Origin: Oligoflexia bacterium
Lineage (GTDB): Bacteria > Bdellovibrionota_C > UBA2361 > JAFLCA01
Reading direction: 5' to 3'
DNA: 64,000 nucleotides
Assembly: GCA_019694465.1 (NCBI GenBank)
Contig: JAIBBV010000006.1
Location: 18,843 to 82,842, forward strand
The position numbers were made by a program, and so were the translations under genes. How positions within the stretch are numbered: the first letter of the stretch is position 1; each line of letters opens with the position of its first letter. The notes under the pieces were generated by a model. It was not told the DNA's origin. It did no database searches and was given only the letters and a program-made list of their open reading frames with translations. This document shows positions 36,278 through 52,439 of this stretch, piece after piece.

Positions 36278-38182
36278 TCAACTAATCGCAATAATTCTGG
36301 CGACACATTCGGTAATCGTTGAATTTGCTGTGTCGAGTTTAAGCGCTGGATTAAGCGGTGGTTCATACGGGGAACCGATGCCTGTGAATTCAGGGATTTC
36401 CCCTTTCCGCGCCTTTTTGTAGAGGCCATGCGGGTCGCGCGCCTCACATACTTGCAGTGGTACATCCAAGTAAATCTCGACGAAACGTTCGCTGCCAATT
36501 ATGCTGCGAGCAGCAGCACGGTCTCTCCTAAATGGTGATACCAAGCTACAAATCACGCTCATGCCAGCTTCGTTAAAAAGTTTGGCCACTTCAGCCGTTC
36601 GACGCACATTCTCCCCGCGGTCCTCAATCGAGAACCCCAAATCCCTGTTAAGCCCGCTTCGAAGATAATCACCATCCAAGTGGAATATTGGAATTTTTTT
36701 ATCAAATAACGCACGTTCCAGGGCTCTGGCTATGCTCGATTTCCCTGAACCCGATAAGCCTGTAAGCCAGTACGTCTTAGCTCGAACGCCGGAGAGTTCC
36801 TCACGCTCTGCTTGCTCCACCAGTTTTGTATCGATATGTAGGTTTCTAGCTTGCTCGGCCGACTGGCGACGTAGCAATTGATTGGCCCAATAATCATTTC
36901 CGAGAGAATCGATGATCATTCCTGCCCCAACTGTATTATAGCTGATGGGATCTATTAGGATGAAGCTGCCCATGGCGCGGTTTCTCTCATACGGATCTAT
37001 CCACATAGGTTTGGTAGATTTGATAGTCCATCGAGCGATTTCATTCAATTGCATCCCGCCTCCGGGGAGACACTTGAGAGAAGAGCAATCAATCTTATAT
37101 TTGCAATTCTGAAGTATTACTTTGCTGTCGAAGGAGGCATGTTTAAGCAATAGAGTCAGGCCAGCATCGACATGATCCGCGCTCATCCAAATGATCATGG
37201 CGTCAAGCTCGCTGCGGGTCTCTGGAATATTATTGGAATCCACGAGAATTGATCCCCTTCCGACATCTAGATGGCGGTCGAGTACAACAGTCACGGATTT
37301 GCCAGCGCAGGCTTGCTCATATTGCTGCATTGTGCCGTCGATTCCAAGTTGCACTAATTGATGAATGCGCGCCTTGGTCTGACTGGGGAGAACAGTTACC
37401 TCGCAACCAACCCGCAATACACCTGAACAAACCTTGCCACCATAGCCCCTGAATGTTGCGCTTGGGTTTATTGTGCACTGGATGGGCACACGTAAGTCCA
37501 GCTGATTTAGATCGCTCTCGACTGGCGCAGTCTCTAAAATTTCGAGTACTGTTGACCCCTGATACCAGGGCATTTTTCTGCTGTTAACAGCGACATTGTC
37601 TCCGTGCAAGGCAGATATGGGGATGAAGGATAGCATGCCAAGGTTCAAATGATTCGCAAACGCAAGAAAATCCTTATTAATCTGATCGAATACTTCCTGC
37701 CGATAATCCACGAGATCCATTTTATTGACGGCCACAATTACTCGAGGAACACGCATTAGAGCTGAGATGAACGCATGGCGCTTCGTTTGCGGGAGGACGC
37801 CCTTGCTCGCGTCGATAAGTATGATAGTGAGCTCAGCGTTTGACGCTGCCGTCGCCATGTTACGGGTGTACTGCTCATGGCCAGGACTATCCACTAAAAT
37901 GAAACGCCGCTTGAGGGTAGAGAAGTAACGATAGGCAACGTCAATAGTAATGCCCTGCTCTTGTTCAGCTTTAAGCCCATCGGTAACTAATGCGAAGTCC
38001 AAAAGCGACGAGGTATTTCGTTTAGAACGTGCTTGCAGAGAGCTAAGCTGGTCGTCGAATAGGGCTCCCGTGTCGTAAAGTAACCTTCCTAGCAGGGTAG
38101 ATTTTCCATCATCAACAGATCCAGCTGTTGAAAAGCATAATAACTCTTGTCGTAGGGGGCTGGCTGAATCCGAGAGTAGCAT
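36278..38182 (-). CDS. cysNC: bifunctional sulfate adenylyltransferase subunit 1 (CysN GTPase) / adenylylsulfate kinase (CysC)
   Basis: N-terminal GTPase motifs (GSVDDGKST, DSPGH, NKMD). C-terminal APS kinase P-loop (GLSGSGKSS) and …FVEIYLDVPLQVCEARDPHGLYKKARKGEIPEFTGI…. Confidence 0.9.
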   Translation of the reverse strand: MLLSDSASPLRQELLCFSTAGSVDDGKSTLLGRLLYDTGALFDDQLSSLQARSKRNTSSLLDFALVTDGLKAEQEQGITIDVAYRYFSTLKRRFILVDSPGHEQYTRNMATAASNAELTIILIDASKGVLPQTKRHAFISALMRVPRVIVAVNKMDLVDYRQEVFDQINKDFLAFANHLNLGMLSFIPISALHGDNVAVNSRKMPWYQGSTVLEILETAPVESDLNQLDLRVPIQCTINPSATFRGYGGKVCSGVLRVGCEVTVLPSQTKARIHQLVQLGIDGTMQQYEQACAGKSVTVVLDRHLDVGRGSILVDSNNIPETRSELDAMIIWMSADHVDAGLTLLLKHASFDSKVILQNCKYKIDCSSLKCLPGGGMQLNEIARWTIKSTKPMWIDPYERNRAMGSFILIDPISYNTVGAGMIIDSLGNDYWANQLLRRQSAEQARNLHIDTKLVEQAEREELSGVRAKTYWLTGLSGSGKSSIARALERALFDKKIPIFHLDGDYLRSGLNRDLGFSIEDRGENVRRTAEVAKLFNEAGMSVICSLVSPFRRDRAAARSIIGSERFVEIYLDVPLQVCEARDPHGLYKKARKGEIPEFTGIGSPYEPPLNPALKLDTANSTITECVARIIAIS

Positions 38183-39075
38183 TAAAAATACCCCTCCCGC
38201 TTTTTTAGCTCCATCGACGCATCTTGGTCATAATCAATCACGCGAGTTTTTCTCTCTGACACACGCGTGTCCTGTAATTCGGCAATAATTTTTGGCACTG
38301 TGTCGGCCTCTGATACTACCGCTCCGGTGCATGGCATGCATCCCAAGGTACGGAAGCGACAACGAAGAGCTACGGGGGACTCATTCGATTTGAGCGGTGC
38401 AAAAGATGTAATTGGGATTAGCATGTTTCCGCGCTGTAACACCTGCCTGATCCTTGAGAAATATAATGAAGCGACGGGAATTCGCTCACGGAGAATATAT
38501 TCCCAAATATCAATTTCGGTCCAATTTGAGAGAGGAAAGGCGCGAATAGACTCGCCCAGCCGCACCTTTCCATTGAGCAGGCTCCAAAGCTCAGGTCGTT
38601 GATTTCTTGGTTCCCACTGTCCGAACTGGTCACGAAATGAAAATACACGCTCTTTAGCTCTAGAGCGTTCTTCTTCGCGCCTTGCACCTCCGATCGCAGC
38701 GTCAACCTTATGCAGGCGAAGTGCCTCAAGTAGCGCTTGGGTTTTAAGTAGGCGACAGCAATGTTCAGTGCCTAACTCGAAAGGGTTGGCTCCATCCGCG
38801 ATGGCGCGTTCATTTCGATAAACTATCAACTCTGCTCCCGCGGTCCTACAAGTTTCGTCACGGAACTCATACATCTCGGGGAACTTGAAGCCTGTGTCGA
38901 TGTGTAACAAGGGAAATGGAATTTTTCCCGGAGCGAAAGCTTTCTGGGCCAAGCGCAGTAGCACAGAAGAATCCTTGCCGACGGAATACAGCATTATAGG
39001 TCGAGCGAACTGAGCGACAATCTCACGAAAAATATATATGCTTTCGGCCTCCAGCCTATCGAGATGACTTTCCAT
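38182..39075 (-). CDS. cysD: sulfate adenylyltransferase subunit 2 (CysD)
   Basis: …IMLYSVGKDSSVLLRLAQKAF…PFPLLHIDTGFKFPEMYEFRDE… PAPS-reductase-like fold. Its stop overlaps the cysNC start. Confidence 0.9.
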   Translation of the reverse strand: MESHLDRLEAESIYIFREIVAQFARPIMLYSVGKDSSVLLRLAQKAFAPGKIPFPLLHIDTGFKFPEMYEFRDETCRTAGAELIVYRNERAIADGANPFELGTEHCCRLLKTQALLEALRLHKVDAAIGGARREEERSRAKERVFSFRDQFGQWEPRNQRPELWSLLNGKVRLGESIRAFPLSNWTEIDIWEYILRERIPVASLYFSRIRQVLQRGNMLIPITSFAPLKSNESPVALRCRFRTLGCMPCTGAVVSEADTVPKIIAELQDTRVSERKTRVIDYDQDASMELKKREGYF

Positions 39076-39154
39076 GCCAGTTCTATAGCTCAGAGGTTCT
39101 ATATAAAACAGGGTTCATTTAAAAGTTCCTTAAAGCGCTAGAGTTTCCCAGAAA

Positions 39155-40339
39155 TTAACTTGCTAGTTGTACTTGACGCTCCCAGCGACAGGAGTAGTCA
39201 GCAGCAACAAAGCCGATAAAGGTGTTGTGTTGGTGCTCTAAGAATAATTGGAGTGGTATCTCAAGCGTGTATCCAAAAAACGATTCACTCGCATTAGGCA
39301 GGAAGTTCGGGTATGCCTTCCTTACATCTACGCGTTCCATGGTGCAGATATTATGAGCGAGTACCCGATCATTGCTACGGAGATATACAAAAGCCGGTGC
39401 CAATCCACTTGCTGATTCAAAGCACCAACCTCCAATACTAATATTACCTGGAGAGTAAAGCACAGAATCAATCGCAAATATGACGGAAGGCTGCGAGCCG
39501 GAATGGAGCGGCTGTATTTGTGGCAGGCCTTGATGAGTGCTGGGGGGGACTGGGGCATCTAAGCTGCCATCAGAATCCTGTTGCTTTGATAAGAAATGCT
39601 CCAATATGAATTCAATCAACTCGTAGTCAGGCGCATTTGCAGCCCGTACGTCATTTAAATCTTGTTCGCTAATTTCAAAGTCTCGATTTGCTCCCGAATT
39701 TACCACCTTGTCAGCACTGGGCGGGTTAAAATGTACACCTAAAAGCGGTGACAGTCGGCGCATACTCTCGGCTAAGTGCTCCGTAATCCCTACGAACGCA
39801 AAGTGATTCAAGATTGTCTTTCGAGCAAGCTTAATTTCCCTTGAACCAATCTGCTTTGGCTGTTCCTCAAGAAAAGCGCGAGTTAGTGCGTTTGAGTTCT
39901 CTGGAAATTCGGGGGATAAACAAAAGTCTCGAAAGTTCAATGGAGAGTTTGAATGACGCCAAAAATTTCGCCCATCAAACCTTAGCGTTGAATGGAAATA
40001 GTCAGATACAAGACGACGCAGGGGATCCCGCACAAATGAAATAAGCTTAAAACCATCAAACTGACAGCAGTCTCGTAAGCCCAGATGGCCAGAAATAAAA
40101 CGTATTGACTGGCGCGAAGTTGGACTAAGCGCGTTCCAGGCTCTGAGACTGCAGTTCTCGGCTCCGTAAAACTGAGCAAATTGCCCGGGTGTAAGGTGCT
40201 TATGGATTGCACTAAGAAACCACTTGCCGGCTGTTTTCGGGATATGCATGAAGCAAAATTTAGAATTCATGTTCGTGTGGTTACCTTTCAGCAACATGCT
40301 TGGTTGATTCACAGAGATACTGGGATCCACCAACATCAA
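39155..40339 (-). CDS. PAPS-dependent sulfotransferase (Sulfotransfer_2-like) with a ~150-aa C-terminal extension
   Basis: 5-prime-PSB motif …MHIPKTAGKWF… and 3-prime-PB-like …RDPLRRLVSDYFH… In an operon upstream of cysD/cysNC on the same strand. Confidence 0.65.
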   Translation of the reverse strand: MMLVDPSISVNQPSMLLKGNHTNMNSKFCFMHIPKTAGKWFLSAIHKHLTPGQFAQFYGAENCSLRAWNALSPTSRQSIRFISGHLGLRDCCQFDGFKLISFVRDPLRRLVSDYFHSTLRFDGRNFWRHSNSPLNFRDFCLSPEFPENSNALTRAFLEEQPKQIGSREIKLARKTILNHFAFVGITEHLAESMRRLSPLLGVHFNPPSADKVVNSGANRDFEISEQDLNDVRAANAPDYELIEFILEHFLSKQQDSDGSLDAPVPPSTHQGLPQIQPLHSGSQPSVIFAIDSVLYSPGNISIGGWCFESASGLAPAFVYLRSNDRVLAHNICTMERVDVRKAYPNFLPNASESFFGYTLEIPLQLFLEHQHNTFIGFVAADYSCRWERQVQLAS

Positions 40340-40869: not shown

Positions 40870-41664
40870 GTGCCTTTAACAAAGGGCTTAAGCATGAAAG
40901 CTCGCGCAAAATTTGCATGTGTCGTAACTCGCCTGTCCGTCCTACTTGGCCTACTTTTCCTATGTAGTTGTCGCGAGACAATAGTTCACAATCTTTCAGA
41001 GCGGGACGCCAATCGCCTACTAACGCGCCTGCATGATGTGAGTATAGAGGCCACTAAAGAGAAGCAGCCCGATGGAAATTGGAGTATTGCGACTACTGAG
41101 GACGAGGCACTGCGCGCGATTAAGTTTCTAGATGATGCGCGCTTTTTTAGGCGTGAGGAGCTGCCTCAAGACAACGAAGAGTCGGTATTGGCTAGTCCCG
41201 AAGAACGGCGCGCTCGCACAAACCGCTTATTAGCGCGTGAGTTGGAAGCCAGTATCCGTAGCATCGATGGTATTCTGGAAGCGCACGTACACCTAAACAT
41301 ACCGCCCTTAGATCCAATTTTTGGCACAGTAGCGAGCCTTCAGCATGGCTCAGGCAGCGTGGTGGCAACTGTTGCACCGGGGAATAAGGTCATGGTTGGT
41401 GATTTGCAGGCACTTGTGTCTGGAGCGACTGGAATAGCTCCTAAGGATGTGAGTGTCCTGCTCGCGGATGGAGACATCGCTAGGGATGGCTTATTGCAGC
41501 CAAAGTCGCATGAAGTTGGGAATGAATCTACGTCATGGTGGGCAGCGGTCCTGTTGCGCAGGGAAGTAGTGTTGCTAATTGGGGTCGGACTCCTGCTGCT
41601 AGGTTTTGCTTTGCTGCATGCTTTACAAACATCACGAGGAGTGAGTTCGGAGGTGGCCCAGTGA
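40870..41664 (+). CDS. sctJ: type III secretion inner-membrane ring lipoprotein SctJ (YscJ/PrgK/EscJ family)
   Basis: Lipobox LLFLCSC, YscJ-family core (…LLTRLHDVSIEATKEKQPDGNWSIATTEDEALRAIKFL…ILEAHVHLNIPP…) and C-terminal TM helix. The likely start is ATG 40894. Confidence 0.8.
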   Translation: MPLTKGLSMKARAKFACVVTRLSVLLGLLFLCSCRETIVHNLSERDANRLLTRLHDVSIEATKEKQPDGNWSIATTEDEALRAIKFLDDARFFRREELPQDNEESVLASPEERRARTNRLLARELEASIRSIDGILEAHVHLNIPPLDPIFGTVASLQHGSGSVVATVAPGNKVMVGDLQALVSGATGIAPKDVSVLLADGDIARDGLLQPKSHEVGNESTSWWAAVLLRREVVLLIGVGLLLLGFALLHALQTSRGVSSEVAQ

Positions 41665-41864
41665 GTGAGCCAGAGCCAAATGAAACACGCGCGCAATGGG
41701 AAGAAAAGTTTTTGGCCGCTTTGTTCCTGCATGGCTTGCGACTGCGAGTCAATTGCTTGGCAGGGATAGATAAGGAACGGGTCAGCGCTTTAGCTCGTGA
41801 TATCGAAGATATGCCAGAAGCATGGGCCATGGATTGGGCGCTTAGCCGATTCGACTACAGGTGA
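41661..41864 (+). CDS. small T3SS-associated ORF, translationally coupled to sctJ (GTGA overlap)
   Basis: In frame with listed ORF 41535-41864. GTG at 41661 overlaps the sctJ stop. 67 aa with no recognisable motif. Confidence 0.3.
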   Translation: MSEPEPNETRAQWEEKFLAALFLHGLRLRVNCLAGIDKERVSALARDIEDMPEAWAMDWALSRFDYR

Positions 41865-41868
41865 GCAA

Positions 41869-42795
41869 ATGGGATTGAGGGCTAAATTAATTCAAGACAG
41901 CTGCGTCAATGATGCCGGACTATTAGAGGAATTTATTAGCGAGCTAGCTGGCTATCTGCTTGGATGCTCCGCCAAAGCATATATATCAGATTGTGTATGT
42001 CGCACGATGCAAAGCAACGTATGGGTCTGCCTACGGCAGCAGGGTGGGGCCGCCTTCATGCTAGGTATCCCAGCCCAAACTGAGATAGACCGCGAAGTAT
42101 TTCAATTTTCATGTTTAGCCCGTGTAATGGCGTTCCTCTCAAATACTGGCCGGAATGAAGTAATTCTCCCAAATATTGAGCTAGATTCTGGCTGCAGGAC
42201 ATGGCAGGTGGACATACTTGCCAGCCAGAATTCGACCCTTCTCTCACAATGGACATTGTGCAGACACTCTGCGGCTAAATGTCTTGATAGCGAGAAACAT
42301 GGGCGCGTAGCTTACCCACAGCGTCTCAGGGCAGAAATCGGAATCAAGTTAGGTGCCACTACATCGCTTCAGCGCCGCTATGAACTTAGCAGGTTGAGTT
42401 GGTTTTTGAGGACCAGCGAAGTGGAATGGTCGCTTAAATGTGATGGCACTAATCAATTTTATGTAAGTGGAGAAAACAGCATGAGCAGTGATCGCCTGAA
42501 GCTAGAGATAATGATTGGAAGCGTGGAGATAGGGCTAGAGGAGTTTTCGGCTCTTCGCCCCGGTTGCCGACTTGCACTTGAGATAGGTGCTCCGATTGAA
42601 GGCACCCTATGTGTAAACGGGGTGGCGTGGGCAGCTGTACAGCTGGAGTTTGGTCCTAATGCCAATGAAATTAGGATATTAGAAATGTTGGATTTGACAC
42701 TGCGTAAGGCTGAACTGCCGGAAATGGCAACACTCGCTGAGATATTCCGATTAGATGATCAGACATCCTCAAACGAGAAAGACGCTAGAAGTTGA
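41869..42795 (+). CDS. sctQ: type III secretion cytoplasmic-ring protein SctQ (YscQ/HrcQ; SpoA/FliN-like C-terminal domain)
   Basis: C-terminal …LKLEIMIGSVEIGLEEFSALRPGCRLALEIGAPIEGTLCVNGVAWAAVQLEFGPNANEIRILEM is a SpoA domain. ATG 41869 has the RBS aggtga and directly follows the upstream stop; the listed ORF starts at 41797. Confidence 0.6.
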   Translation: MGLRAKLIQDSCVNDAGLLEEFISELAGYLLGCSAKAYISDCVCRTMQSNVWVCLRQQGGAAFMLGIPAQTEIDREVFQFSCLARVMAFLSNTGRNEVILPNIELDSGCRTWQVDILASQNSTLLSQWTLCRHSAAKCLDSEKHGRVAYPQRLRAEIGIKLGATTSLQRRYELSRLSWFLRTSEVEWSLKCDGTNQFYVSGENSMSSDRLKLEIMIGSVEIGLEEFSALRPGCRLALEIGAPIEGTLCVNGVAWAAVQLEFGPNANEIRILEMLDLTLRKAELPEMATLAEIFRLDDQTSSNEKDARS

Positions 42796-42907
42796 CTCAA
42801 AGATAGCTTCTAGTCGCGCCAAGGATGGCGCGGCAAACGCCGAAGGCGTTTGTAGCGAGGCGAGGCATGGGCACTTTGGGACCCATGCCGAGCTCGAAGC
42901 GAATTAA

Positions 42908-42927
42908 AAATGGGCAGGAGCCCATTT
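42908..42927 (+). terminator. 8-bp stem / 4-nt loop hairpin (aaatgggc agga gcccattt) followed by TT, between sctQ and the needle/rod-like gene; attenuator or terminator-like
   Basis: Read directly. A second 7-bp inverted repeat gcatggg…cccatgc lies at 42865-42888. Confidence 0.35.
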
Positions 42928-42958
42928 TTGAAATGACTTGTACTAAAGGAGAGACAAT

Positions 42959-43258
42959 ATGGAATCAGTAAATGGCAATGATGCAGCGGCAACAATTTCT
43001 AGCTTAGGATACTCACGATTTCTTCCCGAGCCGACTAGCCGGCTATCTTCAGTTTTTAGCAGCATACTACAGGGGATAACTGGAGCAGCCAAAAGTGCAT
43101 CCGGACTCTTCTCCGGTATTGATTCCGGTTACGTCGAGTTGCTCAATAAGCAAATCGAATCGCAACAGCAGATGCAGCTAGTCTCAATGGAATCAAACGT
43201 AGAGAAATCGAAGCACGAAACTCAGATGGCAGCTATTCGTAACGTACGGGTGGGATAA
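42959..43258 (+). CDS. small T3SS needle / inner-rod family protein (SctF/SctI-like)
   Basis: 99 aa; Ser/Ala-rich N-terminus. The C-terminal …LVSMESNVEKSKHETQMAAIRNVRVG fits the needle/rod C-terminal pattern (h..SN..K……IRN[IFV]). Sits between sctQ and sctV with a strong RBS (aaaggagag). Confidence 0.4.
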   Translation: MESVNGNDAAATISSLGYSRFLPEPTSRLSSVFSSILQGITGAAKSASGLFSGIDSGYVELLNKQIESQQQMQLVSMESNVEKSKHETQMAAIRNVRVG

Positions 43259-43289
43259 TTCGGCAACTGAATTCAGCCAGAGGCGGCAT

Positions 43290-45155
43290 ATGAAACAGTT
43301 GATGGTACCTGGAGTGCTGGTCGCAATTGTGGCGAGTATGCTACTCCCGTTGCCGCCTCTAGCGCTTGATTTTCTGATAGTTGCCAACCTAGTCCTGGCA
43401 TTCGTTCTGTTGGCATCAACTGTTTATATCGCCGAGCCAATGAAACTGTCCTCTTTGCCGACAATATTACTGCTCGCCACCTTGTATAGGCTGGCACTTA
43501 ATATTTCTACATCTCGGCAGATTCTTTCACATGGCGAAGCTGGGCAGGTGATTGAGGCGTTTGGAGCAATAGTTATTCAGGGAAATATCTTAGTCGGTCT
43601 GGTTGTATTCATGATCGTATCGATTGTGCAGTTTGTTGTAATCGCAAAGGGCGCTGAACGAGTCGCGGAGGTTACAGCTAGATTTACTCTGGATGCTTTG
43701 CCCGGAAAGCAGATGTCGATCGATGCAGATGTGCGCGCTGGGCTACTAGATGGGGCTGGTGCACAGGCCAAACGCCAAGAGCTGCAAATTGAGTCACGTT
43801 TTTATGGCGCCCTAGATGGGGCAATGAAGTTTATTAAGGGAGATGCTCTGGCTGGGTTGGTGATAGTGGTGCTGAACCTTTGTGGTGGGTTTGGTGTGGG
43901 CGTTGCCATGCAGGGCATGAATCTTAAGCAAGCTGTGACACATTATTCGGTCCTGAGTGTTGGTGATGCGCTTGTCGCGCAGCTTCCAGCTCTGCTTAAT
44001 GCCTTGGCGGCTGGAGTGATAGTAACCCGCGTTTCTCGCGGCGATGGCACTTCACTAGCGAATGAGCTTCCCATGCAGCTTGGGCAGTTGCGTGTTGTTA
44101 AGTTCCTCACAGCTGGATTGGCTGCTGTATGTGCATTTTTGCCCGGCATGCCGACACTTCCATTTCTGATGTTCGGCTTGCTCATGTTGATTATGGCTTG
44201 TGTGCACCAGGCGGCGCAGGAGGAAGTGCCTCTCTGCGCTGATCGGTTTAATCCTAAGGCAGTGCCACTCATAGGATTGGAGTTCGGCACTGAAATTTCG
44301 AAGACTTTGCAGGGGCATGGGAAGGATCTTGTGCGCGCTATCGATGGGGCACGCGAGAGATTGTACGCTTCTACCGGGGTGCTAGTGCCGACCCCCGATG
44401 TGATTAGAGTTGACAAGCTAGGCAGCGCATTTTGCCTGTGCCTGCGTGGCATAGAGGTGGCACGCGAGTCGGCGCAAGGAACAGTGGCAGAGGTAGTATC
44501 GGCTGTTGGCAATTTAGTTCAGGCCGCCCTGATCAAGCATCAGTTAGAGCTCGTTGATGACAGGATGACACGCGCTCTTTTGGATATCCTGGAGCGCGAG
44601 GCGCCCGAGTTGGTTTCGTCAGTTGTGCCCGGCATAGTGAGCATCACGCAGATTAGCATGATTCTCAAGGAGCTGCTGCGCGAGGGAGTGCGAATTAGAA
44701 ACTTTGACCTGATTCTTCAGGCCCTTGCTGAACATGGACCAAAAGCACGCAATGAACGCGCGCTTTTAGAGGAAGTGAGAGTATCGTTGAGCCGCTCCCT
44801 ATGCGCGGACCTTGTAGACTCACAAGGACGCATAGCTTGCTATGAAGTGGCACCATTATTTGATGTTTGGCTAGTAGCAGCAGAGAAAGAAGGCAAAGCA
44901 ATTGATCCACTCTTAATTGCTAAGCTGGCAAACGAAATAAGTGCTGCTGCTGTAAATTGCGGTCCAGTGGTTGTAGTAGTGTCGAAAGGAGGACGGGCCT
45001 ACCTGCGGGATTGCCTTAAGCTACGACAAATATCGGCGACGCTCTTAGCATATGAGGAGATACCTATTGACCTCAGCATAGTCTCACAAGGCAGACTTGG
45101 GTCGTGCATAGCAGAGGAGGAGCATGAAACGATTGTTCAAGCCCTTGCTGCTTAG
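43290..45155 (+). CDS. sctV: type III secretion export-gate protein SctV (FHIPEP family; YscV/InvA/FlhA homologue)
   Basis: N-terminal TM domain is near-identical in pattern to YscV (…LLPLPPLALDFLIVANL…FGAIVIQGNILVGLVVFMIVSIVQFVVIAKGAERVAEVTARFTLDALPGKQMSIDADVRAGL…GAMKFIKGDALAGLVIV…). Context with SctJ (not FliF) argues for a non-flagellar system. Confidence 0.9.
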   Translation: MKQLMVPGVLVAIVASMLLPLPPLALDFLIVANLVLAFVLLASTVYIAEPMKLSSLPTILLLATLYRLALNISTSRQILSHGEAGQVIEAFGAIVIQGNILVGLVVFMIVSIVQFVVIAKGAERVAEVTARFTLDALPGKQMSIDADVRAGLLDGAGAQAKRQELQIESRFYGALDGAMKFIKGDALAGLVIVVLNLCGGFGVGVAMQGMNLKQAVTHYSVLSVGDALVAQLPALLNALAAGVIVTRVSRGDGTSLANELPMQLGQLRVVKFLTAGLAAVCAFLPGMPTLPFLMFGLLMLIMACVHQAAQEEVPLCADRFNPKAVPLIGLEFGTEISKTLQGHGKDLVRAIDGARERLYASTGVLVPTPDVIRVDKLGSAFCLCLRGIEVARESAQGTVAEVVSAVGNLVQAALIKHQLELVDDRMTRALLDILEREAPELVSSVVPGIVSITQISMILKELLREGVRIRNFDLILQALAEHGPKARNERALLEEVRVSLSRSLCADLVDSQGRIACYEVAPLFDVWLVAAEKEGKAIDPLLIAKLANEISAAAVNCGPVVVVVSKGGRAYLRDCLKLRQISATLLAYEEIPIDLSIVSQGRLGSCIAEEEHETIVQALAA

Positions 45156-45723
45156 GGCAGCGCTAGTGTCACTGATCATAAGCGTAACGGCATGCTCACC
45201 AACCATAATTCTCCCTAGTTTGGAGGAACGACGAAGGGCCATCTCGTTGGTTGATGAAGGAACCCTGCAGCTACGCCAAGGAGAGCTTTCTAGTGCGGAG
45301 GCTTCTTTTAGGGTTGCCTATGACTTGGCTTACCTCCCTCAGGCCTTGGATGGCTTGGGTTGTGTGGCACTACGGCGTCAAGACTTCAAAAATGCTGAAA
45401 AGTTTTTTCGAGGTGCATTGGAACTTGATCCAACATATATACAGGCACTTGCTAACCTTGCTTTTCTGCTCGAAGAGCAGGGTAACAGCAAAAAAGCGGA
45501 GCAGTTGTATCGAAAGAGTGTGGAGTTGGACCCGGCGAATGCTGGGGTAAGAAATAACTTCGCAGTTAATTTGGCTCACGGGCCGCATCAACACTTGGCA
45601 CTTGAGCAGTTCCAAGCTGCCCTTGTCTTGAGCGGTAATCCAGCAATTCGGGACAATCGTGCGCTAGCGCTCATGGAGACAGAGCAGGACCTAGCGCTAA
45701 AACCTAAAATTGATCATAATTAA
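45124..45723 (+). CDS. TPR-repeat lipoprotein, T3SS-linked
   Basis: Signal plus lipobox (…LIISVTAC). About 4 TPR units (…AEKFFRGALELDPTYIQALANLAFLLEEQGNSKKAEQLYRKSVELDPANA…). The RBS gaggagg and ATG overlap the sctV 3-prime end. Confidence 0.6.
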   Translation: MKRLFKPLLLRAALVSLIISVTACSPTIILPSLEERRRAISLVDEGTLQLRQGELSSAEASFRVAYDLAYLPQALDGLGCVALRRQDFKNAEKFFRGALELDPTYIQALANLAFLLEEQGNSKKAEQLYRKSVELDPANAGVRNNFAVNLAHGPHQHLALEQFQAALVLSGNPAIRDNRALALMETEQDLALKPKIDHN

Positions 45724-45736
45724 CGGGAGTACAGCC

Positions 45737-46051
45737 ATGGGTGCTAGAACAAAACATAAACTTAAGACTGTAAAGTCACCAGGTGTCAAACGAGAGGTAC
45801 GGCGAAAGTCACAACCTCAGCCACAGCGAATGGGCGCTAGTATCTGGTCTGCTCAAGTGGCTGAGCTCGTAGGGCGCGACTTCGCCAGTACTGAAGCAGC
45901 GATAGCTGCCGTTTGTAGTGGTGTACTCGATCGCTTAGGTGTACAAGGGCAGGAGCGCGCAGAGCAAGAAAAGTTTATGCTTGATCTGATTGAGACTGAT
46001 CCAGAGTTGCGAGGAGTCCTTTTACAGAGTCTAAGAGTTAGGAAGCGCTGA
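45737..46051 (+). CDS. small basic hypothetical protein (104 aa)
   Basis: ATG 45737 with RBS gggag. Lys/Arg-rich N-terminal half. No motif. Confidence 0.35.
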   Translation: MGARTKHKLKTVKSPGVKREVRRKSQPQPQRMGASIWSAQVAELVGRDFASTEAAIAAVCSGVLDRLGVQGQERAEQEKFMLDLIETDPELRGVLLQSLRVRKR

Positions 46052-46879
46052 TGCATCAGCGCTTCCATCAGCTTGATCTTGAGCCTGATCTTCCGTAGCT
46101 GATGTTTCTTTATTTGAGGAGTTTGCGGCTTCCGTTGGCCTTGGCACTTTAACTCCCTTACGATCCCCTAGGCGTTTCCGCAAACGCCCGAGTCTTGTGG
46201 CTGGCCCATTTTGGCGTTCCAGGCAGAAATCTAGAATCGCTTGAGCTAACTTTTCTTCGCCCCCTTGTGCGAAAGTCTTTGCCAGCTCTACGGCGCGTTT
46301 GAAGCCCATAACTTTTTTGCCCAGCTCTCGCTGAGCTGTCTCGAACTGCCGGGCCTGTTTCATAGTTTGTGCCAGGCGATCCAGATTGCTCATCGCTAGT
46401 GAAACAAGAGCCTCATTGCGATTCTTTGCATACAAGATGGCTTCCGACAGTGGTTCGCCCTTAGTAGCCATGGCAATACTACTATCGAGAGTATCTCCGG
46501 CAAATGGTTTTACTATAAATCCGCGCGCGCCAATAACCAACAAGTTGAACACGTCATCGACGCTGGGCTCAGATGATGAAGGCAGCGCTATAATCTTCTC
46601 ATCGCATGCGAGTACTGCCGTGAGGAATTCAGACGCTGGCATGGTGGATTTTTTAGCTTCAAAAATGACATGTGTAATCGGTCGCTCGGCAAGCTTTTGC
46701 AAAGCCATAGCGTGGTTGGGAGCGTCCCAAACCGAGGGATATCCAAGTGAAGCCAGAGTTTGCTTGAAGGTGTTGCGAGTGGTGGCGTCCGATTCAACAA
46801 CCAGGATCTGCGCTCTGTCCTTGTCGAGACTCGACATGACAGGTGCGCCGCCATTGGCTAAAAAGTCCTGGTAGTTCAT
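46031..46879 (-). CDS. atypical receiver-domain protein (pseudo-receiver: phospho-acceptor Asp replaced by Glu) with coiled-coil C-terminal extension
   Basis: CheY-like fold markers (…ILVVESDATTRN…ITHVIFEAKKSTMP…IVKPF…). The D57-equivalent position aligns to E. C-terminal 130 aa is charged and helical. Confidence 0.5.
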   Translation of the reverse strand: MNYQDFLANGGAPVMSSLDKDRAQILVVESDATTRNTFKQTLASLGYPSVWDAPNHAMALQKLAERPITHVIFEAKKSTMPASEFLTAVLACDEKIIALPSSSEPSVDDVFNLLVIGARGFIVKPFAGDTLDSSIAMATKGEPLSEAILYAKNRNEALVSLAMSNLDRLAQTMKQARQFETAQRELGKKVMGFKRAVELAKTFAQGGEEKLAQAILDFCLERQNGPATRLGRLRKRLGDRKGVKVPRPTEAANSSNKETSATEDQAQDQADGSADASALPNS

Positions 46880-47117
46880 GCTCCCCTTACAACGGTCTTT
46901 TGGCGTGGCTCACCATTGAGTCTACACTCTACAAATGCGCCACCCGATCGCCACTCGCCGTAACTAGTCTACCCCTTAATATCGCCTAAATTACTGAACT
47001 TCTTTATGTTTTGTGCTTGTATAGCAGACCGACTAAGCCACTGTAATTGCTGCTATTCCTATCCCTTTTTTATGACGACAGCAAAAGTAAGGGCCTTGTA
47101 GCCTGCTGACGCTAGGA

Positions 47118-47885
47118 TTGTGTCTTGCCCACAGGATAGCTATGAGTACAGCCGCAAATGAAAAACGCACTATTCTTGTCGCTGATGATGACGCAGACAC
47201 ACGCGCCATTGTCACAAGCGCGATTCAGATGCTTGGGCATAACAGTGTCGAAGCCGCTGATGGTAGGCAGGCTTTATCTCTGTCACGTGAACTGGGGATA
47301 GATTTGGCTGTGCTAGATATCATGATGCCGGAAGTAAATGGTAACGAAGTTTGCCAAAGTATTAAGCAAAGTGAGTTCGGACCATACATTCCAGTTTTGA
47401 TGTTGACTGCCCGCGACAATGTCAAAGACAAAGTGAGTTCATTGGATGGTGGTGCAGATGACTATCTAACTAAACCATTTCATTACCAAGAGTTGCAGGC
47501 GCGCATACGCGCGTTGCTCAGAGTTCGTGAACTGAATGAGCGGCTACGTTCACAGAACGATCAACTAAAGGCGATGCAAGCAACGATAGTTTCACAAGAG
47601 CGGCAACTGCTAGTTAATCAATTAGCCGGTACAGCTGCGCATCAGTTAGGGCAACCATTGTCAGCGATTCTATTAAATTGTCACGTGATCGAAACTTTGC
47701 CAGCCGGGGATCCTCGCGCTCAGCGCTCCCTGGCTGCTATCAAGCAAGATGCAAAACGAATGGCTGAAATGATCGAACGTCTAAGATCCGCCGATGCTTC
47801 TAAGACTCAATCGTATCACGGTAAAACTGCGATTTTGGAGCTCGACGACACAGAAAAAACAGATACAAATAAAACTGCACAATAA
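47118..47885 (+). CDS. response-regulator receiver fused to a HisKA-like dimerization/phosphoacceptor domain, no HATPase domain
   Basis: Canonical REC (…ILVADDDADTR…LAVLDIMMPEVNGNEV…VLMLTAR…DDYLTKPF…), then a coiled coil and an H-box-like …LAGTAAHQLGQPLSAIL… The protein ends after ~80 further residues with no ATP-binding G-boxes. Confidence 0.65.
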   Translation: MCLAHRIAMSTAANEKRTILVADDDADTRAIVTSAIQMLGHNSVEAADGRQALSLSRELGIDLAVLDIMMPEVNGNEVCQSIKQSEFGPYIPVLMLTARDNVKDKVSSLDGGADDYLTKPFHYQELQARIRALLRVRELNERLRSQNDQLKAMQATIVSQERQLLVNQLAGTAAHQLGQPLSAILLNCHVIETLPAGDPRAQRSLAAIKQDAKRMAEMIERLRSADASKTQSYHGKTAILELDDTEKTDTNKTAQ

Positions 47886-48019
47886 ACTAAACGGGCCTTC
47901 CCGATCCGAAGATTCAAGGGAAAGCCCGCCAAAACCTATTCACATCCTGTTAAATACCTACATGTAACCCTAAAGAAGCTTGCTCGTTCGCGCAAGAGGG
48001 TATTTTCTCTCTCGCCAGT

Positions 48020-48667
48020 TTAGATCACCTCAGCGGCGCGTTGCGCAAGAAGTTTGGCACGAATAATTTGTCGCTTGCCTGTGAAGTCGTCCCAATATGT
48101 TTGAAGACGTTTGCGAAGCATCAGGCGAGAACGATGTAACCTAGACTTTACCGCCGGAATCGAGAGATCTAAAATCTCACTTACTTCTTGATTGGAGAGA
48201 CCATCAACATCGCGCAGCACAAACACTGCTCTGTATTGATCAGGAAGCTTGTTCAATGCGGCTTCAATAATGTCTCGCATTTCTTTATTGATCGAGAGTA
48301 AGTCTGAACGATTTCCGAAAGATACTTCGCGATCTAAACACTGTTGCTTAACAGCAGGCGCCAAATCTTCAATAGCAACTGTATTGTTTTGTTTGCGCTT
48401 ACGTAACTTCATGAATGCAGCGTTCACGATGATGCGATATAGCCAGCTGGAGAAGGCTGAGTTGCCTTTGAAGCCATCGAGCTTCTGATACAGGGTGGTG
48501 AAAACATCCTGCAGTACTTCTTCGGCATCTTCCTGGTTTCGGGTGAAGCGCATGGCAAGGTTGTAGATCTTTGACTCATAGCGCTCGAGCAACTCTTCAA
48601 AGGCTTCCATTGAGCCTTTGCGGAATTTGGCAATGAGGGTCGCATCAGTAATTTTTTTCTCTTTCAT
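48020..48667 (-). CDS. ECF (sigma-24/RpoE-like) sigma factor
   Basis: Region 2 (…AEEVLQDVFTTLYQKLDGFKGNSAFSSWLYRIIVNAAFMKLRKRKQ…) and region 4 (…RAVFVLRDVDGLSNQEVSEILDLSIPAVKSRLHRSR…). Confidence 0.85.
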   Translation of the reverse strand: MKEKKITDATLIAKFRKGSMEAFEELLERYESKIYNLAMRFTRNQEDAEEVLQDVFTTLYQKLDGFKGNSAFSSWLYRIIVNAAFMKLRKRKQNNTVAIEDLAPAVKQQCLDREVSFGNRSDLLSINKEMRDIIEAALNKLPDQYRAVFVLRDVDGLSNQEVSEILDLSIPAVKSRLHRSRLMLRKRLQTYWDDFTGKRQIIRAKLLAQRAAEVI

Positions 48668-48961
48668 GGCACGTATTCCTGAAGTGTTGTGCTTTGCCTG
48701 GCTGATACATACTTCTAGCCAGCGACTGAGGTGTCTGCTGTTGGCCTAGCCCAACCGCTCCTCACGACGCCCTCTTTTGTGCCACATAGCGGGGTTAGGG
48801 TTGCCACGAACTGGTAACAACTTTGTAATAAAACTGTAAAAACGCCTGGTTCGGATGCGTTGGGTGCCAGAAACATCGGTTGAAAGCCGAAGCTTCTTGC
48901 TATATTTGCTCCGGTAAGGTGGCTAAGCTTGTAGCACTTGGATCAGTGCTAATCGACTGCG

Positions 48962-49804
48962 TTAAACAGTACCGACTTGAGCGGGACTGCCGGCGGCGCG
49001 TGTGGCAGTGTAGTCTGACTCACTAATCTTATGGTGACGAACTTTGAACACCATAATGTCGCGAAACATGCGCAACGCATCAAGGATCAAATTCACCTTT
49101 GAGCCAGGCACGTTCTTCCAGTTGATTGGAACTTCCACGATTTTCATCCTGGCCTTTCGCGCAATGTACAGAACTTCGACATCAAAGCTAAAGCCGTCAC
49201 TTTGTTGCCGCTCGAACAAGAAACGCGCTGCTGGGCCAGTGAACAACTTGAAACCGCATTGCGTGTCGGCAACAGATGGAAGAACTAACATGTTCACACA
49301 GAAATTGAAGGCTCTTCCTAAAAACTTCCTATACCAGCGTGTGATTACTTTAGTATCTGTAGAGGCTAACGCGCGGGAGCCGATGACGACCTCCGCTCCT
49401 TTGGAGAGCTCGGCTTCCAAGCGCTCCACTTCACGGAAGGGAGTGGAACCATCTGCATCAGCAAACAATACTGCTTTACCATGAGCAGTTAACATACCAA
49501 GACGTACGGCGTGACCCTTACCATAATTACGTGGAACTCGAATTAATGAGATCTGAGGCCGGATGCGCTCGAATTTCTTAACAACATCAATGGTCATATC
49601 GTTGCTGCCATCATCAACGACGATAATCTCGTAGGAGATGCCGCGCGTATCCAGATAGTCGACCATATCAATTAGAGTCGGTGGTAAGCGCCACTCTTCA
49701 TTAAATGCTGGCACAACTACGGACAGATCTACGGCGCGATCTGAGGGAGTTTGCTGATCTAGCCAACGCTCAACATCGTGATGTGAGTGCTTCTGTTGTG
49801 TCAT
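48962..49804 (-). CDS. polyprenol-phosphate glycosyltransferase (GT2; DPM1/ArnC/GtrB-like)
   Basis: …LSVVVPAFNEE…YEIIVVDDGSNDMT…GKGHAVRLGM…FADADGSTP… are classical GT2 polyprenyl-phosphate sugar transferase motifs. Confidence 0.8.
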   Translation of the reverse strand: MTQQKHSHHDVERWLDQQTPSDRAVDLSVVVPAFNEEWRLPPTLIDMVDYLDTRGISYEIIVVDDGSNDMTIDVVKKFERIRPQISLIRVPRNYGKGHAVRLGMLTAHGKAVLFADADGSTPFREVERLEAELSKGAEVVIGSRALASTDTKVITRWYRKFLGRAFNFCVNMLVLPSVADTQCGFKLFTGPAARFLFERQQSDGFSFDVEVLYIARKARMKIVEVPINWKNVPGSKVNLILDALRMFRDIMVFKVRHHKISESDYTATRAAGSPAQVGTV

Positions 49805-50783
49805 CTTGAATTGCTCTAATGCTGGCCTTCCAAGTGAGCATAATAATTGCGCCTGGAATCCCTACGACTAGGTATTGGATGATATGTTGCGCAATCACCA
49901 TAGTCAAAGCGAGTTCCTTAGGTATGCCCACCGATACCAGTACTGAAGTAGCTATAGCTTCAATTACGCCAATTGCACCAGGGGCGCTTGGAATCAGTGA
50001 GCTAAAATTGACCGCCACCATAAAGAGTACGCACTCGGATAGTGACAAATGAGCACCGAATGCCCAGGTGACTGTTACGTATACAAAAAGTTCAATCGAC
50101 CAAATTACAAGCGACCATAATGCGACTGGCAGAAACTGGCGCAGTGAACATAGAGGTGATAGTCCCTCCAGGAACACTTGCAGTTTGCCAAAAACATAGT
50201 GCGAGGCGTTGTGATTTATTCGCGCATTTAGCTTCCCGACCGTATTTAGCAGCTGTCGACGCATGAGGAGCGTGGCTATGACAGCTGCCGTTGCTCCCGC
50301 AAAAAGTAGCGCTACGTAGGAGAGGTTCTCCGAGAGTCGAGCGTCGCCAAGATGGAAGGAAAAGACTACGAAAAATACGCTTAAAGTAAGACCATCGACT
50401 AGTCGCTCGCTAGCGATGGTTGCGAGGACCAAAGTGCGTGATTCGCCAGAGGTACGGGAGCCCATATGGGCTCTAACAAGCTCACCCGCACGTGCGGGCA
50501 GAACGTTGTTCATAAAAAAGCCTAACACCAACACGCGAGCGGCTTGAATAAAATCCAGAGTTGGCTTGGGAAACAAGGACTGCCAACGGCGCGAGCGCAT
50601 GAGGTAGGAAAGACAGGTTAAGGCGACAGCTAAGCACAACCAAGTGGGTTGGGCGCTTCCCATGTGTTGTAGGAGAGTGTTCCAGTCGACGCCTCGAAAT
50701 GCTCCGTAGAGTGCTACAAGAGTAATTAGCCAAGGCGCGAGTCGCAGCGTGATTCTGATTACCGGATTACTGCTTAGTGACAC
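49770..50783 (-). CDS. flippase-like / lysylphosphatidylglycerol-synthase-TM-region family membrane protein (TIGR00374-like)
   Basis: 8-TM protein beginning …RLAPWLITLVALYGAFRGVDWNTLLQHM… Overlaps and is co-oriented with the GT2 gene, the usual GtrA/B-type pairing. Confidence 0.55.
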   Translation of the reverse strand: MSLSSNPVIRITLRLAPWLITLVALYGAFRGVDWNTLLQHMGSAQPTWLCLAVALTCLSYLMRSRRWQSLFPKPTLDFIQAARVLVLGFFMNNVLPARAGELVRAHMGSRTSGESRTLVLATIASERLVDGLTLSVFFVVFSFHLGDARLSENLSYVALLFAGATAAVIATLLMRRQLLNTVGKLNARINHNASHYVFGKLQVFLEGLSPLCSLRQFLPVALWSLVIWSIELFVYVTVTWAFGAHLSLSECVLFMVAVNFSSLIPSAPGAIGVIEAIATSVLVSVGIPKELALTMVIAQHIIQYLVVGIPGAIIMLTWKASIRAIQDDTTEALTSRC

Positions 50784-50951: not shown

Positions 50952-51626
50952 CTAAGACGCTGGTTTTTCCGACATAATATCTCTAGCGATACAGCTCGCC
51001 AGGTCTCGGACCAGGCCGGCAGTATCCATGATAGTAGGGTCTTCCTTGGCCAGGTAAATGGAGCTCAGCTCAGAATTAACACCGCGCCTATATGAACTTG
51101 CAGTGGTTACGCCAGACCAGAGGGTGATGCCAGACTCAGCCTCGATAAGTTTTGTTTCCGCGCTCAGTTTATCTAAGGAAACTATTGGCTGAACTTTTCC
51201 AACCAGTATCAAATCATATCCGGCATCGCGACCGGCAGCGATGGCACCAAAATTACCCGTGGCAAACTCATCCTTCTTGGAGGGCCAGTCTTGGCGATTA
51301 AGAACCTCGACTATGGGGATCGTGTCGAGATCTACTATTTCACTGCGTACCTGCCAGGCTAGCTCGTTGCCCAGACCTGGCATTTCTGTCCCACGCGAGG
51401 CAAGGTTTGCCGGGGTTGAAAATGGAATAATCCCCAGTCGTACTGGAGCACTTGAGTCATAACGGCTACTTAGGTAGTCCGCAACAACGTTGCGCAAGTA
51501 TGCACGGGAATTGCATCGATCAAGAACGTACTGTTGTGTCAGCGAGCAGCTGACCAGACCAAGGATGGTGGAAAGTGTCAGAAGTTTGACACCAACGACG
51601 GTAAAACGGCGCAGGCTTAATAGCAT
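50952..51626 (-). CDS. lipoprotein, CsgG/LpoB/FlgO-like fold (hypothetical)
   Basis: Lipobox LVSCS, then …VRLGIIPFSTPANLASRGTEMPGLGNELAWQVRSEIV…, the pattern shared by CsgG/LpoB/FlgO-type lipoproteins. Confidence 0.4.
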   Translation of the reverse strand: MLLSLRRFTVVGVKLLTLSTILGLVSCSLTQQYVLDRCNSRAYLRNVVADYLSSRYDSSAPVRLGIIPFSTPANLASRGTEMPGLGNELAWQVRSEIVDLDTIPIVEVLNRQDWPSKKDEFATGNFGAIAAGRDAGYDLILVGKVQPIVSLDKLSAETKLIEAESGITLWSGVTTASSYRRGVNSELSSIYLAKEDPTIMDTAGLVRDLASCIARDIMSEKPAS

Positions 51627-51656: not shown

Positions 51657-52439
51657 ATGAACTTGAACAAAACATCTACTCGCTGGACTAAACTTCTTCA
51701 ATTTACATGCCATCTATGCGCCATTGTGCTGGTTATGGCATTTGGGTCTGCTTGTAGTAAACGCTATAGCGATGTTCCAGCCTATTCACCATTCCCAATG
51801 GGCGACTATGACAATGAGTCTGCCGGTCGCTTTAAGACTTCTTACATTGTAGACCAAATCGATCACTATTATCGAGGTACAAATCCAGGTCCGATTGGTG
51901 TGACTACCTTTGTTAATGTCGATGACCTCTATTCAACTTCTACCTTTGGTCGCATGTATGCCGAGCAGGTTATGAGCGAATTGGCAATGCGCGGGTTTGA
52001 TGTGATTGAGCTTAGACATGCCGACACATTGCAATTCATGTCGGGGCGCGGTGAATTTGCGATGTCGCGCGATGTTAGTTCAGTGCGACCAGCTCGCCAA
52101 TTGGGCGGAGTAGTCGTAGGTACTTATGTGGTTTCCCCGGTACGCGTATACGTAAACGCACGACTCTTAGATCCAACTACATCAGTCGTATTGTCGGCAG
52201 GTTCGGTTGAAATGTCGAAGAGCGGTGAATTATCACGCTTGCTACGCGGGGGGGCTTTCCCAGCAACTCTTGAGCGTATCCCTGTTCGTCACGTAGGAAT
52301 TTCAACCTATCCAATGAACCTTGGGCCTTCAGAAACAGGACGTTTGTATGATTTGGAGGAGAGCGGTGGCAGTTCCACGCAGTGGCATAATGGCGGAGTT
52401 GAGCCAAAGTTTGCCCCACCTAAGGGTGCTAAGAACTAG
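51657..52439 (+). CDS. lipoprotein, same CsgG/LpoB/FlgO-like family, divergent from the previous gene
   Basis: Lipobox FGSACS, then …IGVTTFVNVDDLYSTSTFGRMYAEQVMSELAMRGFDVIELR…. Confidence 0.4.
   Translation: MNLNKTSTRWTKLLQFTCHLCAIVLVMAFGSACSKRYSDVPAYSPFPMGDYDNESAGRFKTSYIVDQIDHYYRGTNPGPIGVTTFVNVDDLYSTSTFGRMYAEQVMSELAMRGFDVIELRHADTLQFMSGRGEFAMSRDVSSVRPARQLGGVVVGTYVVSPVRVYVNARLLDPTTSVVLSAGSVEMSKSGELSRLLRGGAFPATLERIPVRHVGISTYPMNLGPSETGRLYDLEESGGSSTQWHNGGVEPKFAPPKGAKN

Follow-up and report, generated by a model that had tools for sequence, protein, structure and literature searches.

A conserved block of a pseudo-receiver gene, an ATPase-less receiver-DHp gene and an ECF sigma factor gene in uncultured Bdellovibrionota

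How is an extracytoplasmic function (ECF) sigma factor controlled when no anti-sigma gene accompanies it and two genes of two-component type lie next to it? This question was raised by three regulator genes, here called A, B and C, in a 64,000-nucleotide stretch of contig JAIBBV010000006.1 from an Oligoflexia bacterium, the whole of which is called the window below. Gene A encodes a receiver-fold protein, gene B a receiver fused to a dimerization and histidine phosphotransfer (DHp) hairpin, and gene C the sigma factor. The three open reading frames (ORFs) lay where the original prediction, made from the DNA alone, had placed them, and the alternating pattern that it described was also found: A (minus strand) and B (plus) are divergent, and B and C (minus) are convergent. 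All three window proteins were 100% identical to proteins of the metagenome-assembled genome (MAG) at NCBI. Comparison of genomes showed that the three genes are a conserved block and not a chance neighbourhood. We tentatively prefer the reading that A and B form a docking module with sigma factor C as its candidate target.

Loci were found in two ways: genomes were scanned with the A alignment, after which tblastn and ORF clustering were applied, and B and C homologues were used for look-ups. A, B and C occurred together in 10 loci, all from uncultured Bdellovibrionota. The three genes were directly adjacent in the window and in loci L003, L007, L035, L168 and L169, and L034, L038 and L083 each had one extra gene between B and C. 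A and B were divergent neighbours in 11 of the 11 loci showing both genes, and the pair was inverted as a unit in L165 and L001, whatever its flanks (the L001 contig ends there). Because this gene pair is fixed and moves as a unit, a functional partnership of A and B is the strongest of our inferences. The trio lay beside a partial type III secretion system (T3SS)-like cluster, SctJ-SctV-TPR-S, in six or seven of the 10 loci and away from the SctV cluster in four (L007, L035, L083, L169). The A family itself comprised two subfamilies: group 1, which includes window A, is linked to the T3SS-like and ECF genes and is always divergent from B, and group 2 forms the majority. The inserts between B and C were considered as a common component, and also as the secreted protein that trails group-2 A genes; they were unrelated to one another and to that protein, and both ideas were dropped.

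How much of a receiver is A? The Pfam model Response_reg (PF00072) matched it with 30.7 bits at a cut-off of 30.2. In a phmmer alignment with CheY that was ungapped at the key sites, E29/S30 of A corresponded to D12/D13, E74 to D57 and K124 to K109. Ser30 stands in place of the second metal-binding Asp (CheY D13) and Glu74 (codon 46658-46660) at the acceptor position; the conserved Thr/Ser and Lys markers are kept as Ser102 (T87) and Lys124 (K109). In the AlphaFold model (mean predicted local distance difference test score 85) E74 closes strand beta3 (residues 70-74), and Foldseek matched the model to CheY with a template modelling score of 0.85-0.90, the (beta-alpha)5 fold being intact. A shifted alignment cannot bring back the acceptor, as the 5 residues on either side of E74 (THVIFEAKKSTMP) include no Asp. 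Both the Glu at the D57 equivalent and the retained markers, as first read from the translation, were thus upheld.

The acceptor position was Glu in 75, Asp in 44 and Gln in 1 of 120 close A homologues. Among 97 full-length representatives (50% identity clusters) it was Asp in 34, Glu in 22, Ser in 20, Thr in 7 and Gln in 6. None of the 120 close homologues had an acid at the D13 equivalent, which over the family as a whole was S, P, A, T or K and in no case a conserved acid. The 12 group-1 proteins had an acceptor Glu in eight cases and an Asp in four, and the second metal ligand was S, P or G in all 12 of these B-linked proteins. In the group-2 paralogues the acceptor was Asp in 25 of 35. 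Judged by these residues, A is a pseudo-receiver family-wide, lacking the acceptor Asp and the metal-binding acid of a canonical receiver, and it is probably not phosphorylatable because the metal-binding and acceptor positions are both degenerate. The first reading had left the choice between a phosphomimetic protein and a pseudo-receiver; as the pocket is degenerate across the family, the pseudo-receiver stands, but a mere mimic of the phosphorylated state does not.

The part of A behind the receiver had been taken for a coiled-coil tail. It proved instead to be a conserved domain, confidently modelled by AlphaFold as four helices (154-176, 180-203, 208-223 and 229-242) and followed by a disordered acidic tail. 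The domain terminates in the invariant motif GPATRLGRLRKRL, and the most conserved segment of A is rich in Arg and Lys. The domain had no match in Pfam, none among PDB sequences and no Foldseek match in the PDB with E<1. A profile of the domain, run against 1.84 billion representative proteins, retrieved only 127 clusters, in almost all of which it occupied residues ~130-245 and stood behind a pseudo-receiver. The domain is lineage-restricted and has no known relative. Two proteins had other architectures: P0416 (607 aa) carries an N-terminal Ser/Thr protein kinase before the pseudo-receiver and the C-terminal domain, and in P0401 (474 aa) the two domains are followed by HEAT-like repeats.

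Gene B scored 94 bits for Response_reg and 36.4 bits for HisKA and, as had been claimed, lacks HATPase_c by Pfam. The same was found in all 120 of the closest homologue clusters, which are 192-276 aa each and consist of receiver and HisKA only; because these homologues are all similarly short, B is not a truncation. The protein ends about 20 residues past DHp helix 2 and 80 residues past His167 (codon 47640-47642), which lies inside the H-box QLAGTAAHQLGQPLSAI. Asp59, the acceptor (codon 47316-47318), was invariant together with Thr89 and Lys111 (119-120 of 120 clusters), DDD15-17 was nearly so (115-118 of 120), and His167 was present in 120 of 120. The residue after the His (H+1) is Gln168 in the window; it was Q, S, K, R or A in 114 of the 120 clusters and acidic in six. 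An acidic residue at H+1 is needed for autophosphorylation in HisKA kinases. The spacing from Lys111 (KP motif) to His167 was exactly 56 residues, or 8 heptads, in 112 of 112 B sequences, and receiver-DHp linkers in Rec-controlled kinases are reported to have lengths in multiples of seven (PMC13269768). The layout of B, with an N-terminal canonical receiver, a coiled-coil helix of 7n residues and a DHp, is that of LvrB, and the nearest solved DHp domains were of the FixL/CckA/LvrB type.

Taken together, the Asp, the invariant His, the lack of an ATPase and of the H+1 acid, and the heptad-locked linker point to a Rec-controlled DHp. B looks like a Rec-controlled transmitter of the LvrB type whose ATPase has been lost and whose two phospho-sites have been kept under strong selection. 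Its invariant His would fit the phosphotransfer or phosphatase hub that was originally suggested. The Asp/Glu state of A showed no correlation with the H-box of B across loci. Descent of B from the receiver-HisKA-HATPase kinase found near group-2 A genes was rejected, as the similarity was only ~30% and limited to the receiver. Loci L085-L164, taken as B loci in a scan of metagenome contigs, were also discarded, since they held unrelated response regulators picked up by the generic receiver pattern G[AV]DDYLTK.

Gene C scored 62 bits for Sigma70_r2, 66 bits for Sigma70_r4_2 and 115.6 bits for TIGR02937 sigma70-ECF (cut-off 42.9), and is assigned by these matches to the ECF (group 4) sigma factors, which have sigma-2 and sigma-4 regions only. 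Identity within the family was 62-94% over more than 120 clusters, and a short tail motif after sigma-4, RYYxDFTG, was conserved. The predicted lack of a downstream anti-sigma gene was confirmed: 3' of C there are 134 bp and then the convergent gene B. Gene order in the 10 A-B-C loci revealed no anti-sigma gene. Pfam matches, which covered the scanned genes of the window and the annotated neighbours at four orthologous loci, included no anti-sigma family, and no ORF with the HxxxCxxC motif was found across the 64 kb window. A weak two-way hairpin lies between B and C; the number of terminator-like sites in the region was not above the expectation from shuffled DNA. A family 2 glycosyltransferase (GT2) gene stood upstream of C in five loci (window, L007, L038, L168, L169), and a gene for LPG_synthase_TM in the window, L007, L168 and L169. 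The positions of these and all other features are given in Table 1.

Table 1. Positions in the window of the A-B-C block, its cis-elements and other features
Feature	Position	Strand	Remarks
Gene A, 282 aa	46031..46879	minus	ORF; identical to NCBI 'hypothetical protein K1X79_02590', Oligoflexia bacterium MAG (P0001, 100%)
Pseudo-receiver (CheY-fold) domain of A, residues 23-135	46475..46813	minus	CheY alignment, Foldseek, family residue counts
C-terminal four-helix domain of A, residues 146-242	46154..46444	minus	AlphaFold
Predicted FliA (sigma-28)-type promoter upstream of A, TAAAG-N16-GCGATA	46980..47006	minus	Cross-locus conservation
Gene B, 247 aa	47142..47885	plus	Likeliest start; ORF opens also at TTG 47118; 100% match to P0121, 247 aa
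Receiver domain of B, residues 11-127	47172..47522	plus	Canonical, OmpR/PhoB type
Signalling helix and DHp hairpin of B, residues 128-225	47523..47816	plus	HisKA match
Weak two-way hairpin	47979..47996	both	Terminator-like site between convergent B and C
Gene C, ECF sigma factor, 215 aa	48020..48667	minus	Pfam and NCBIfam
Sigma-2 region of C	48392-48592	minus	
Sigma-4 region of C	48116-48274	minus	
Element upstream of C, TTACA-N6-TTACA-N6-TTACC-N6-TGGCA	48802..48839	minus	Four direct repeats, 11-bp period
GT2 glycosyltransferase	48962-49804	minus	Upstream of C, same strand
LPG_synthase_TM	49770-50783	minus	Upstream of C, same strand
Partial T3SS-like cluster	40870..45723	plus	
SctJ-like	40870-41664	plus	
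SctQ-like	41797-42795	plus	Weak
99-aa ORF	42959-43258	plus	
SctV/FHIPEP	43290-45155	plus	Short, 621 aa
TPR lipoprotein	45124-45723	plus	
Small protein S, 104 aa	45737..46051	plus	Closes SctV cluster; C-terminal motif EFL..LIETDP.L
FliA/WhiG-type sigma factor	34865-35653		
Sulfate-activation and sulfotransferase genes	36278-40339		
GNA1162-like lipoprotein	50952-51626	minus	Sub-threshold (E=0.018)
FlgO	51657-52439	plus	
Second FliA-type motif, TTAAG-N16-ACGATA	59594-59620	minus	
Unannotated 170-aa ORF	59040-59552	minus	
Cas4/PD-(D/E)XK nuclease-like	57991-58620	minus	
841-aa protein	2090-4615	plus	Hydrazine-synthase-alpha middle domain

A and C each have a conserved cis-element. Upstream of A, T(T/A)AAG-N16-nCGATA was found in 11 orthologous loci. 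It fits by sequence the consensus of the Bdellovibrio FliA regulon, the FliA/attack-phase consensus TTAAG-N16-CCGATA having been mapped experimentally in B. bacteriovorus (PMC3627812). Among ~700 ORFs of the loci the motif was almost confined to the upstream DNA of two families, that of A (22 of 45 genes) and one of single-domain receivers (4 of 10), and 16 of 32 group-2 A paralogues had such a promoter. In the window alone the number of motifs was at chance level (4 observed versus 3.3 expected), so that the evidential weight of the motif lies in its conservation across loci. Upstream of B neither a FliA-type nor another shared motif was found. The second FliA-type motif of the window lies 42 nt upstream of the unannotated 170-aa ORF, which had no Pfam or NCBIfam match.

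In most orthologues the element upstream of C reads TTACA-N6-TTACA-N16-GTGACA. It was present in one copy per locus in 10 of 10 A-B-C loci and nowhere else in them, and it was not found upstream of A, B or the SctJ operon; L166, in which C stands alone, has a single TTACA-N16-GTGACA. To judge from its sequence, the element could be the sigma factor's own promoter, a regulator binding site, or both. A regulon of sigma factor C was sought with the pattern TTACA-N16-(G/T/C)(T/G/A)G(A/G)CA and was not accepted, as none of the three other window matches was convincingly placed as a promoter. No Rfam RNA family was found at 45-50 kb.

What, then, might the block do? It would be built from two-component parts stripped of kinase chemistry. 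An unlinked kinase would phosphorylate Asp59 of B (the window ORFs scanned, which lie outside 23-34 kb, included no histidine kinase), and the fixed 8-heptad helix would relay this change to the DHp hairpin, where His167 would be limited to phosphotransfer, dephosphorylation or service as a docking surface. The intact CheY fold and dead pocket of A point to a docking partner; A would dock on the DHp of B like a cognate receiver, and the phosphorylation state of B would decide whether A is held or released. Binding of a pseudo-receiver to a DHp has been documented for ShkA and CikA (PMC12632262). The lineage-specific, Arg-rich four-helix domain would be the output of A, which would be produced under FliA (attack-phase/flagellar) control, and sigma factor C would be the prime candidate target of the pair. 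We infer the docking of A on B and the direction of signal flow. An action of A or B on sigma factor C is speculative, its basis being gene order and the missing anti-sigma gene. Every link between the A, B and C proteins rests on gene order, and the organisms are uncultured.

Several observations weigh against this docking module with C as its target. B occurred without A and C in L084 and L167, as the final gene of the operon that runs from a FliA-like sigma gene through SctJ to SctV. C occurred without A and B in L166 and on the P0345 contig, whose gene content was taken from the gene table only. Most genes of the A family are group-2 paralogues, which sit at a housekeeping locus close to genes for ribosomal proteins and have neither B nor C in the vicinity. 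The C-terminal domain of A showed no similarity to anti-sigma, sigma or DHp folds by Foldseek, hhalign or PDB sequence search. Finally, C has its own conserved promoter element, and transcriptional control alone could explain the missing anti-sigma gene. The separate occurrences of the parts and this element weaken the case for C as a target, and a direct link of the pair to the sigma factor, as in the original suggestion that B might be a sigma-regulating partner, is not supported. At the group-2 locus the order of genes is an M48 peptidase, A, a secreted protein of ~220 aa, a small protein and a receiver-HisKA-HATPase kinase, near ribosomal protein genes; most genomes of the clade carry such a paralogue (loci L005, L008-L016, L025, L081 and others).

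The three genes might instead encode co-located regulators that act separately, sigma factor C being controlled only transcriptionally through the TTACA-repeat promoter (like HrpL and SigE-CseBC), B being a phosphorelay part of the SctJ-SctV cluster and A an unrelated effector of the FliA regulon. The separate cis-elements of A and C, the loci in which B alone terminates the SctV operon or C stands alone, and the A paralogues elsewhere in the genome all speak for such independence. Bdellovibrio ECF genes bd0743 and bd0881 have no downstream anti-sigma gene (PMC3464611), and transcriptionally controlled ECF sigma factors are an established class (PMC8999054). However, the A-B pair is kept in 11 loci and moves as a unit, which is hard to explain without functional coupling, and the trio remains intact in the four loci that are away from the SctV cluster. 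We regard independent action as possible but rather doubtful.

The docking module might also amount to a new kind of partner switch, with neither a kinase domain nor a known anti-sigma fold. The kinase-less DHp of B would hold or release A, and the four-helix domain of A would bind the ECF sigma factor directly, so as to sequester or stabilise it; a nucleotide ligand such as cyclic di-GMP might also be a signal for this. Such a switch, which we consider unlikely in this full form, would couple envelope functions that depend on the ECF sigma factor to the attack or motile phase driven by FliA.

Could A act on the sigma gene and not on its product? As a phosphorylation-independent transcription factor like ChxR and HP1043, A would bind the TTACA repeats with its basic, helix-turn-helix-like end (…FCLERQNGPATRLGRLRKRL) and turn on sigma factor C once FliA has caused A to be made, and B would modulate A. 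Direct repeats with an 11-bp period are typical of the sites of regulator dimers or oligomers, and the double repeat was found only in loci with A and B, the C-alone locus L166 having a single copy. OmpR-type sites read GTTACA, which offers a lead and not a test. The Arg/Lys-rich nature of the most conserved A segment would also agree with DNA binding, and an acceptor Glu is the commonest state of constitutive atypical regulators (PMC12632262). However, no DNA-binding fold was detected by Foldseek, Pfam or PDB sequence search, group-2 A paralogues have no TTACA repeats nearby, and the C element also fits a plain -35/-10 promoter (TTACA-N16-GTGACA). DNA binding by A therefore appears quite unlikely to us.

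A multistep phosphorelay, with B as a fused relay like Spo0F-Spo0B (Asp59 to His167) and A as the terminal acceptor, would account for the invariant Asp and His of B and its lack of a kinase-specific acid, and phosphotransfer strictly needs the His, which phosphatase activity does not (PMC12632262). An acceptor Asp is indeed present in 4 of the 12 group-1 A proteins and in 25 of the 35 group-2 paralogues. Yet window A and 8 of the 12 group-1 proteins have Glu there, the acceptor drifts to S, T or Q across the family, and all B-linked A proteins have S, P or G as the D13-equivalent ligand. A different receiver, encoded elsewhere, may well be the one to which B relays, and the role of terminal acceptor for A is very improbable.

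The PhyR/NepR/EcfG-type partner switch by sigma mimicry that the original prediction had offered as an analogy, on the ground that a receiver-containing protein lies beside an ECF sigma factor without a membrane anti-sigma gene, is rejected as hardly credible, as A and B had no sigma Pfam match and no sigma-like domain (hhalign of the A C-terminal domain against sigma factor C gave a probability of 3.7%), none of the 10 loci had a conserved NepR-like small ORF beside C (S is part of the SctV cluster), and PhyR must be phosphorylatable whereas A is predicted not to be.

The block had been placed directly after T3SS genes. This held for genes of SctJ-like, weakly SctQ-like, SctV/FHIPEP and TPR lipoprotein type, but not for a full injectisome gene set, as the scanned parts of the window yielded no gene for SctN, SctR/S/T/U or a secretin. 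The SctJ-SctV cluster was syntenic in L001, L003, L030, L034, L040, L084 and L165, and it was shared by L167 and L168, the TPR gene being absent from L167. In other genomes a FliA/WhiG-type sigma gene is divergent from SctJ and directly upstream of it; in the window this gene is split from SctJ by sulfate-activation and sulfotransferase genes. Homologues of S (~100-110 aa, with a basic N-terminus) were found at the same position in L084, L165, L167 and L168, always after the SctV gene or, where it is present, after the TPR gene. S had no Pfam or NCBIfam match. As the small ORF 45710-46051 it was considered as an anti-sigma factor for C and rejected, since it belongs to the SctV cluster and occurs where C is absent. 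Given the FliA-like sigma factor of the cluster, the size and position of S recall FlgM-like secreted regulators, and no homology to them was detected.

On the other side of the block, a divergent pair of lipoprotein genes encodes the GNA1162-like protein and FlgO. FlgO recurs near the block in L084, and in L165 and L169 the block has flagellin genes on its flanks; these neighbours suggest a setting of motility or flagellar-sheath genes. The window also carries a Cas4/PD-(D/E)XK nuclease-like gene and encodes a protein of 841 aa whose middle domain is of the hydrazine-synthase-alpha type (Table 1), and no PADLOC defence-system match of note was found in it.

Two sizeable families without described function, a pseudo-receiver with a novel C-terminal domain and a CA-less (lacking the catalytic and ATP-binding domain) receiver-DHp, are thus paired beside a very conserved ECF sigma factor. 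If the docking module is real, a transmitter module can stay a signalling device after kinase loss. It would also provide a concrete partner for pseudo-receivers, whose switching in bacteria is called a mystery (PMC12632262), and a handle on ECF sigma control in predatory-type Bdellovibrionota, where the regulators are unknown (PMC3464611).

How does the block compare with known systems? The PhyR-NepR-EcfG system of Alphaproteobacteria (ECF15) likewise links a receiver protein to an ECF sigma factor without a membrane anti-sigma factor; here, in contrast, there is no sigma-like domain, no NepR and, in A, no phosphorylatable Asp. Among ECF sigma factors without an anti-sigma factor are HrpL (ECF32, a T3SS regulator), SigE-CseBC (ECF39), SigP, which is stabilised by PorX (ECF228), ECF248 and those encoded by bd0743 and bd0881. 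Sigma factor C is likewise without a cognate anti-sigma gene and, as in that group, lies near secretion-system-like, glycosyltransferase and two-component genes. Unlike hrpL, it has no sigma-54 promoter or enhancer-binding protein beside it, and unlike the CseB case, no DNA-binding response regulator. Its likeness to ECF248, which has a glycosyltransferase neighbourhood (PMC8999054), is one of gene context only (GT2, five loci).

Spo0F-Spo0B of Bacillus and ChpT of Caulobacter are like B in having a DHp four-helix-bundle protein whose His is conserved and which lacks ATP-dependent kinase activity, and B resembles a fused Spo0F-Spo0B. However, B ends soon after its second DHp helix, where Spo0B and ChpT still have a degenerate CA-like domain; the modules are fused in B, and here no terminal acceptor was identified. 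A shares its receiver fold with ShkA, CikA and the aspartate-less receivers (PMC12632262, PMC4395418), and its acceptor Glu is the commonest substitution among them. In ShkA and CikA the pseudo-receiver lies inside the kinase polypeptide, whereas A is a separate protein with a novel output domain of its own.

The Lvr system of Leptospira consists of LvrB, a Rec-controlled histidine kinase of Rec-DHp-CA layout, and LvrC, in which an RsbW-like anti-sigma domain is joined to a receiver (PMC13269768). B lacks the CA domain and the H+1 acid, so no autophosphorylation is predicted; A lacks a working acceptor pocket, its output is all-helical and not of the Bergerat fold, and the sigma factor here is an ECF encoded next door. 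In common with LvrB, B has the layout of receiver, signalling helix and DHp with a 7n linker (56); in both systems the product of the partner gene is a receiver-fold protein whose output is non-DNA-binding, and both involve a sigma factor. A receiver-type protein may stand in for an anti-sigma factor here; by analogy, LvrB acting on LvrC is the closer precedent and PorX-SigP another. The superfamily of every part was known already, as were ECF sigma factors that lack anti-sigma genes, pseudo-receivers and incomplete kinases as categories. Full-text literature searches found no description of the A and B families, and what is new is these two specific families, their fixed pairing and the two conserved cis-elements.

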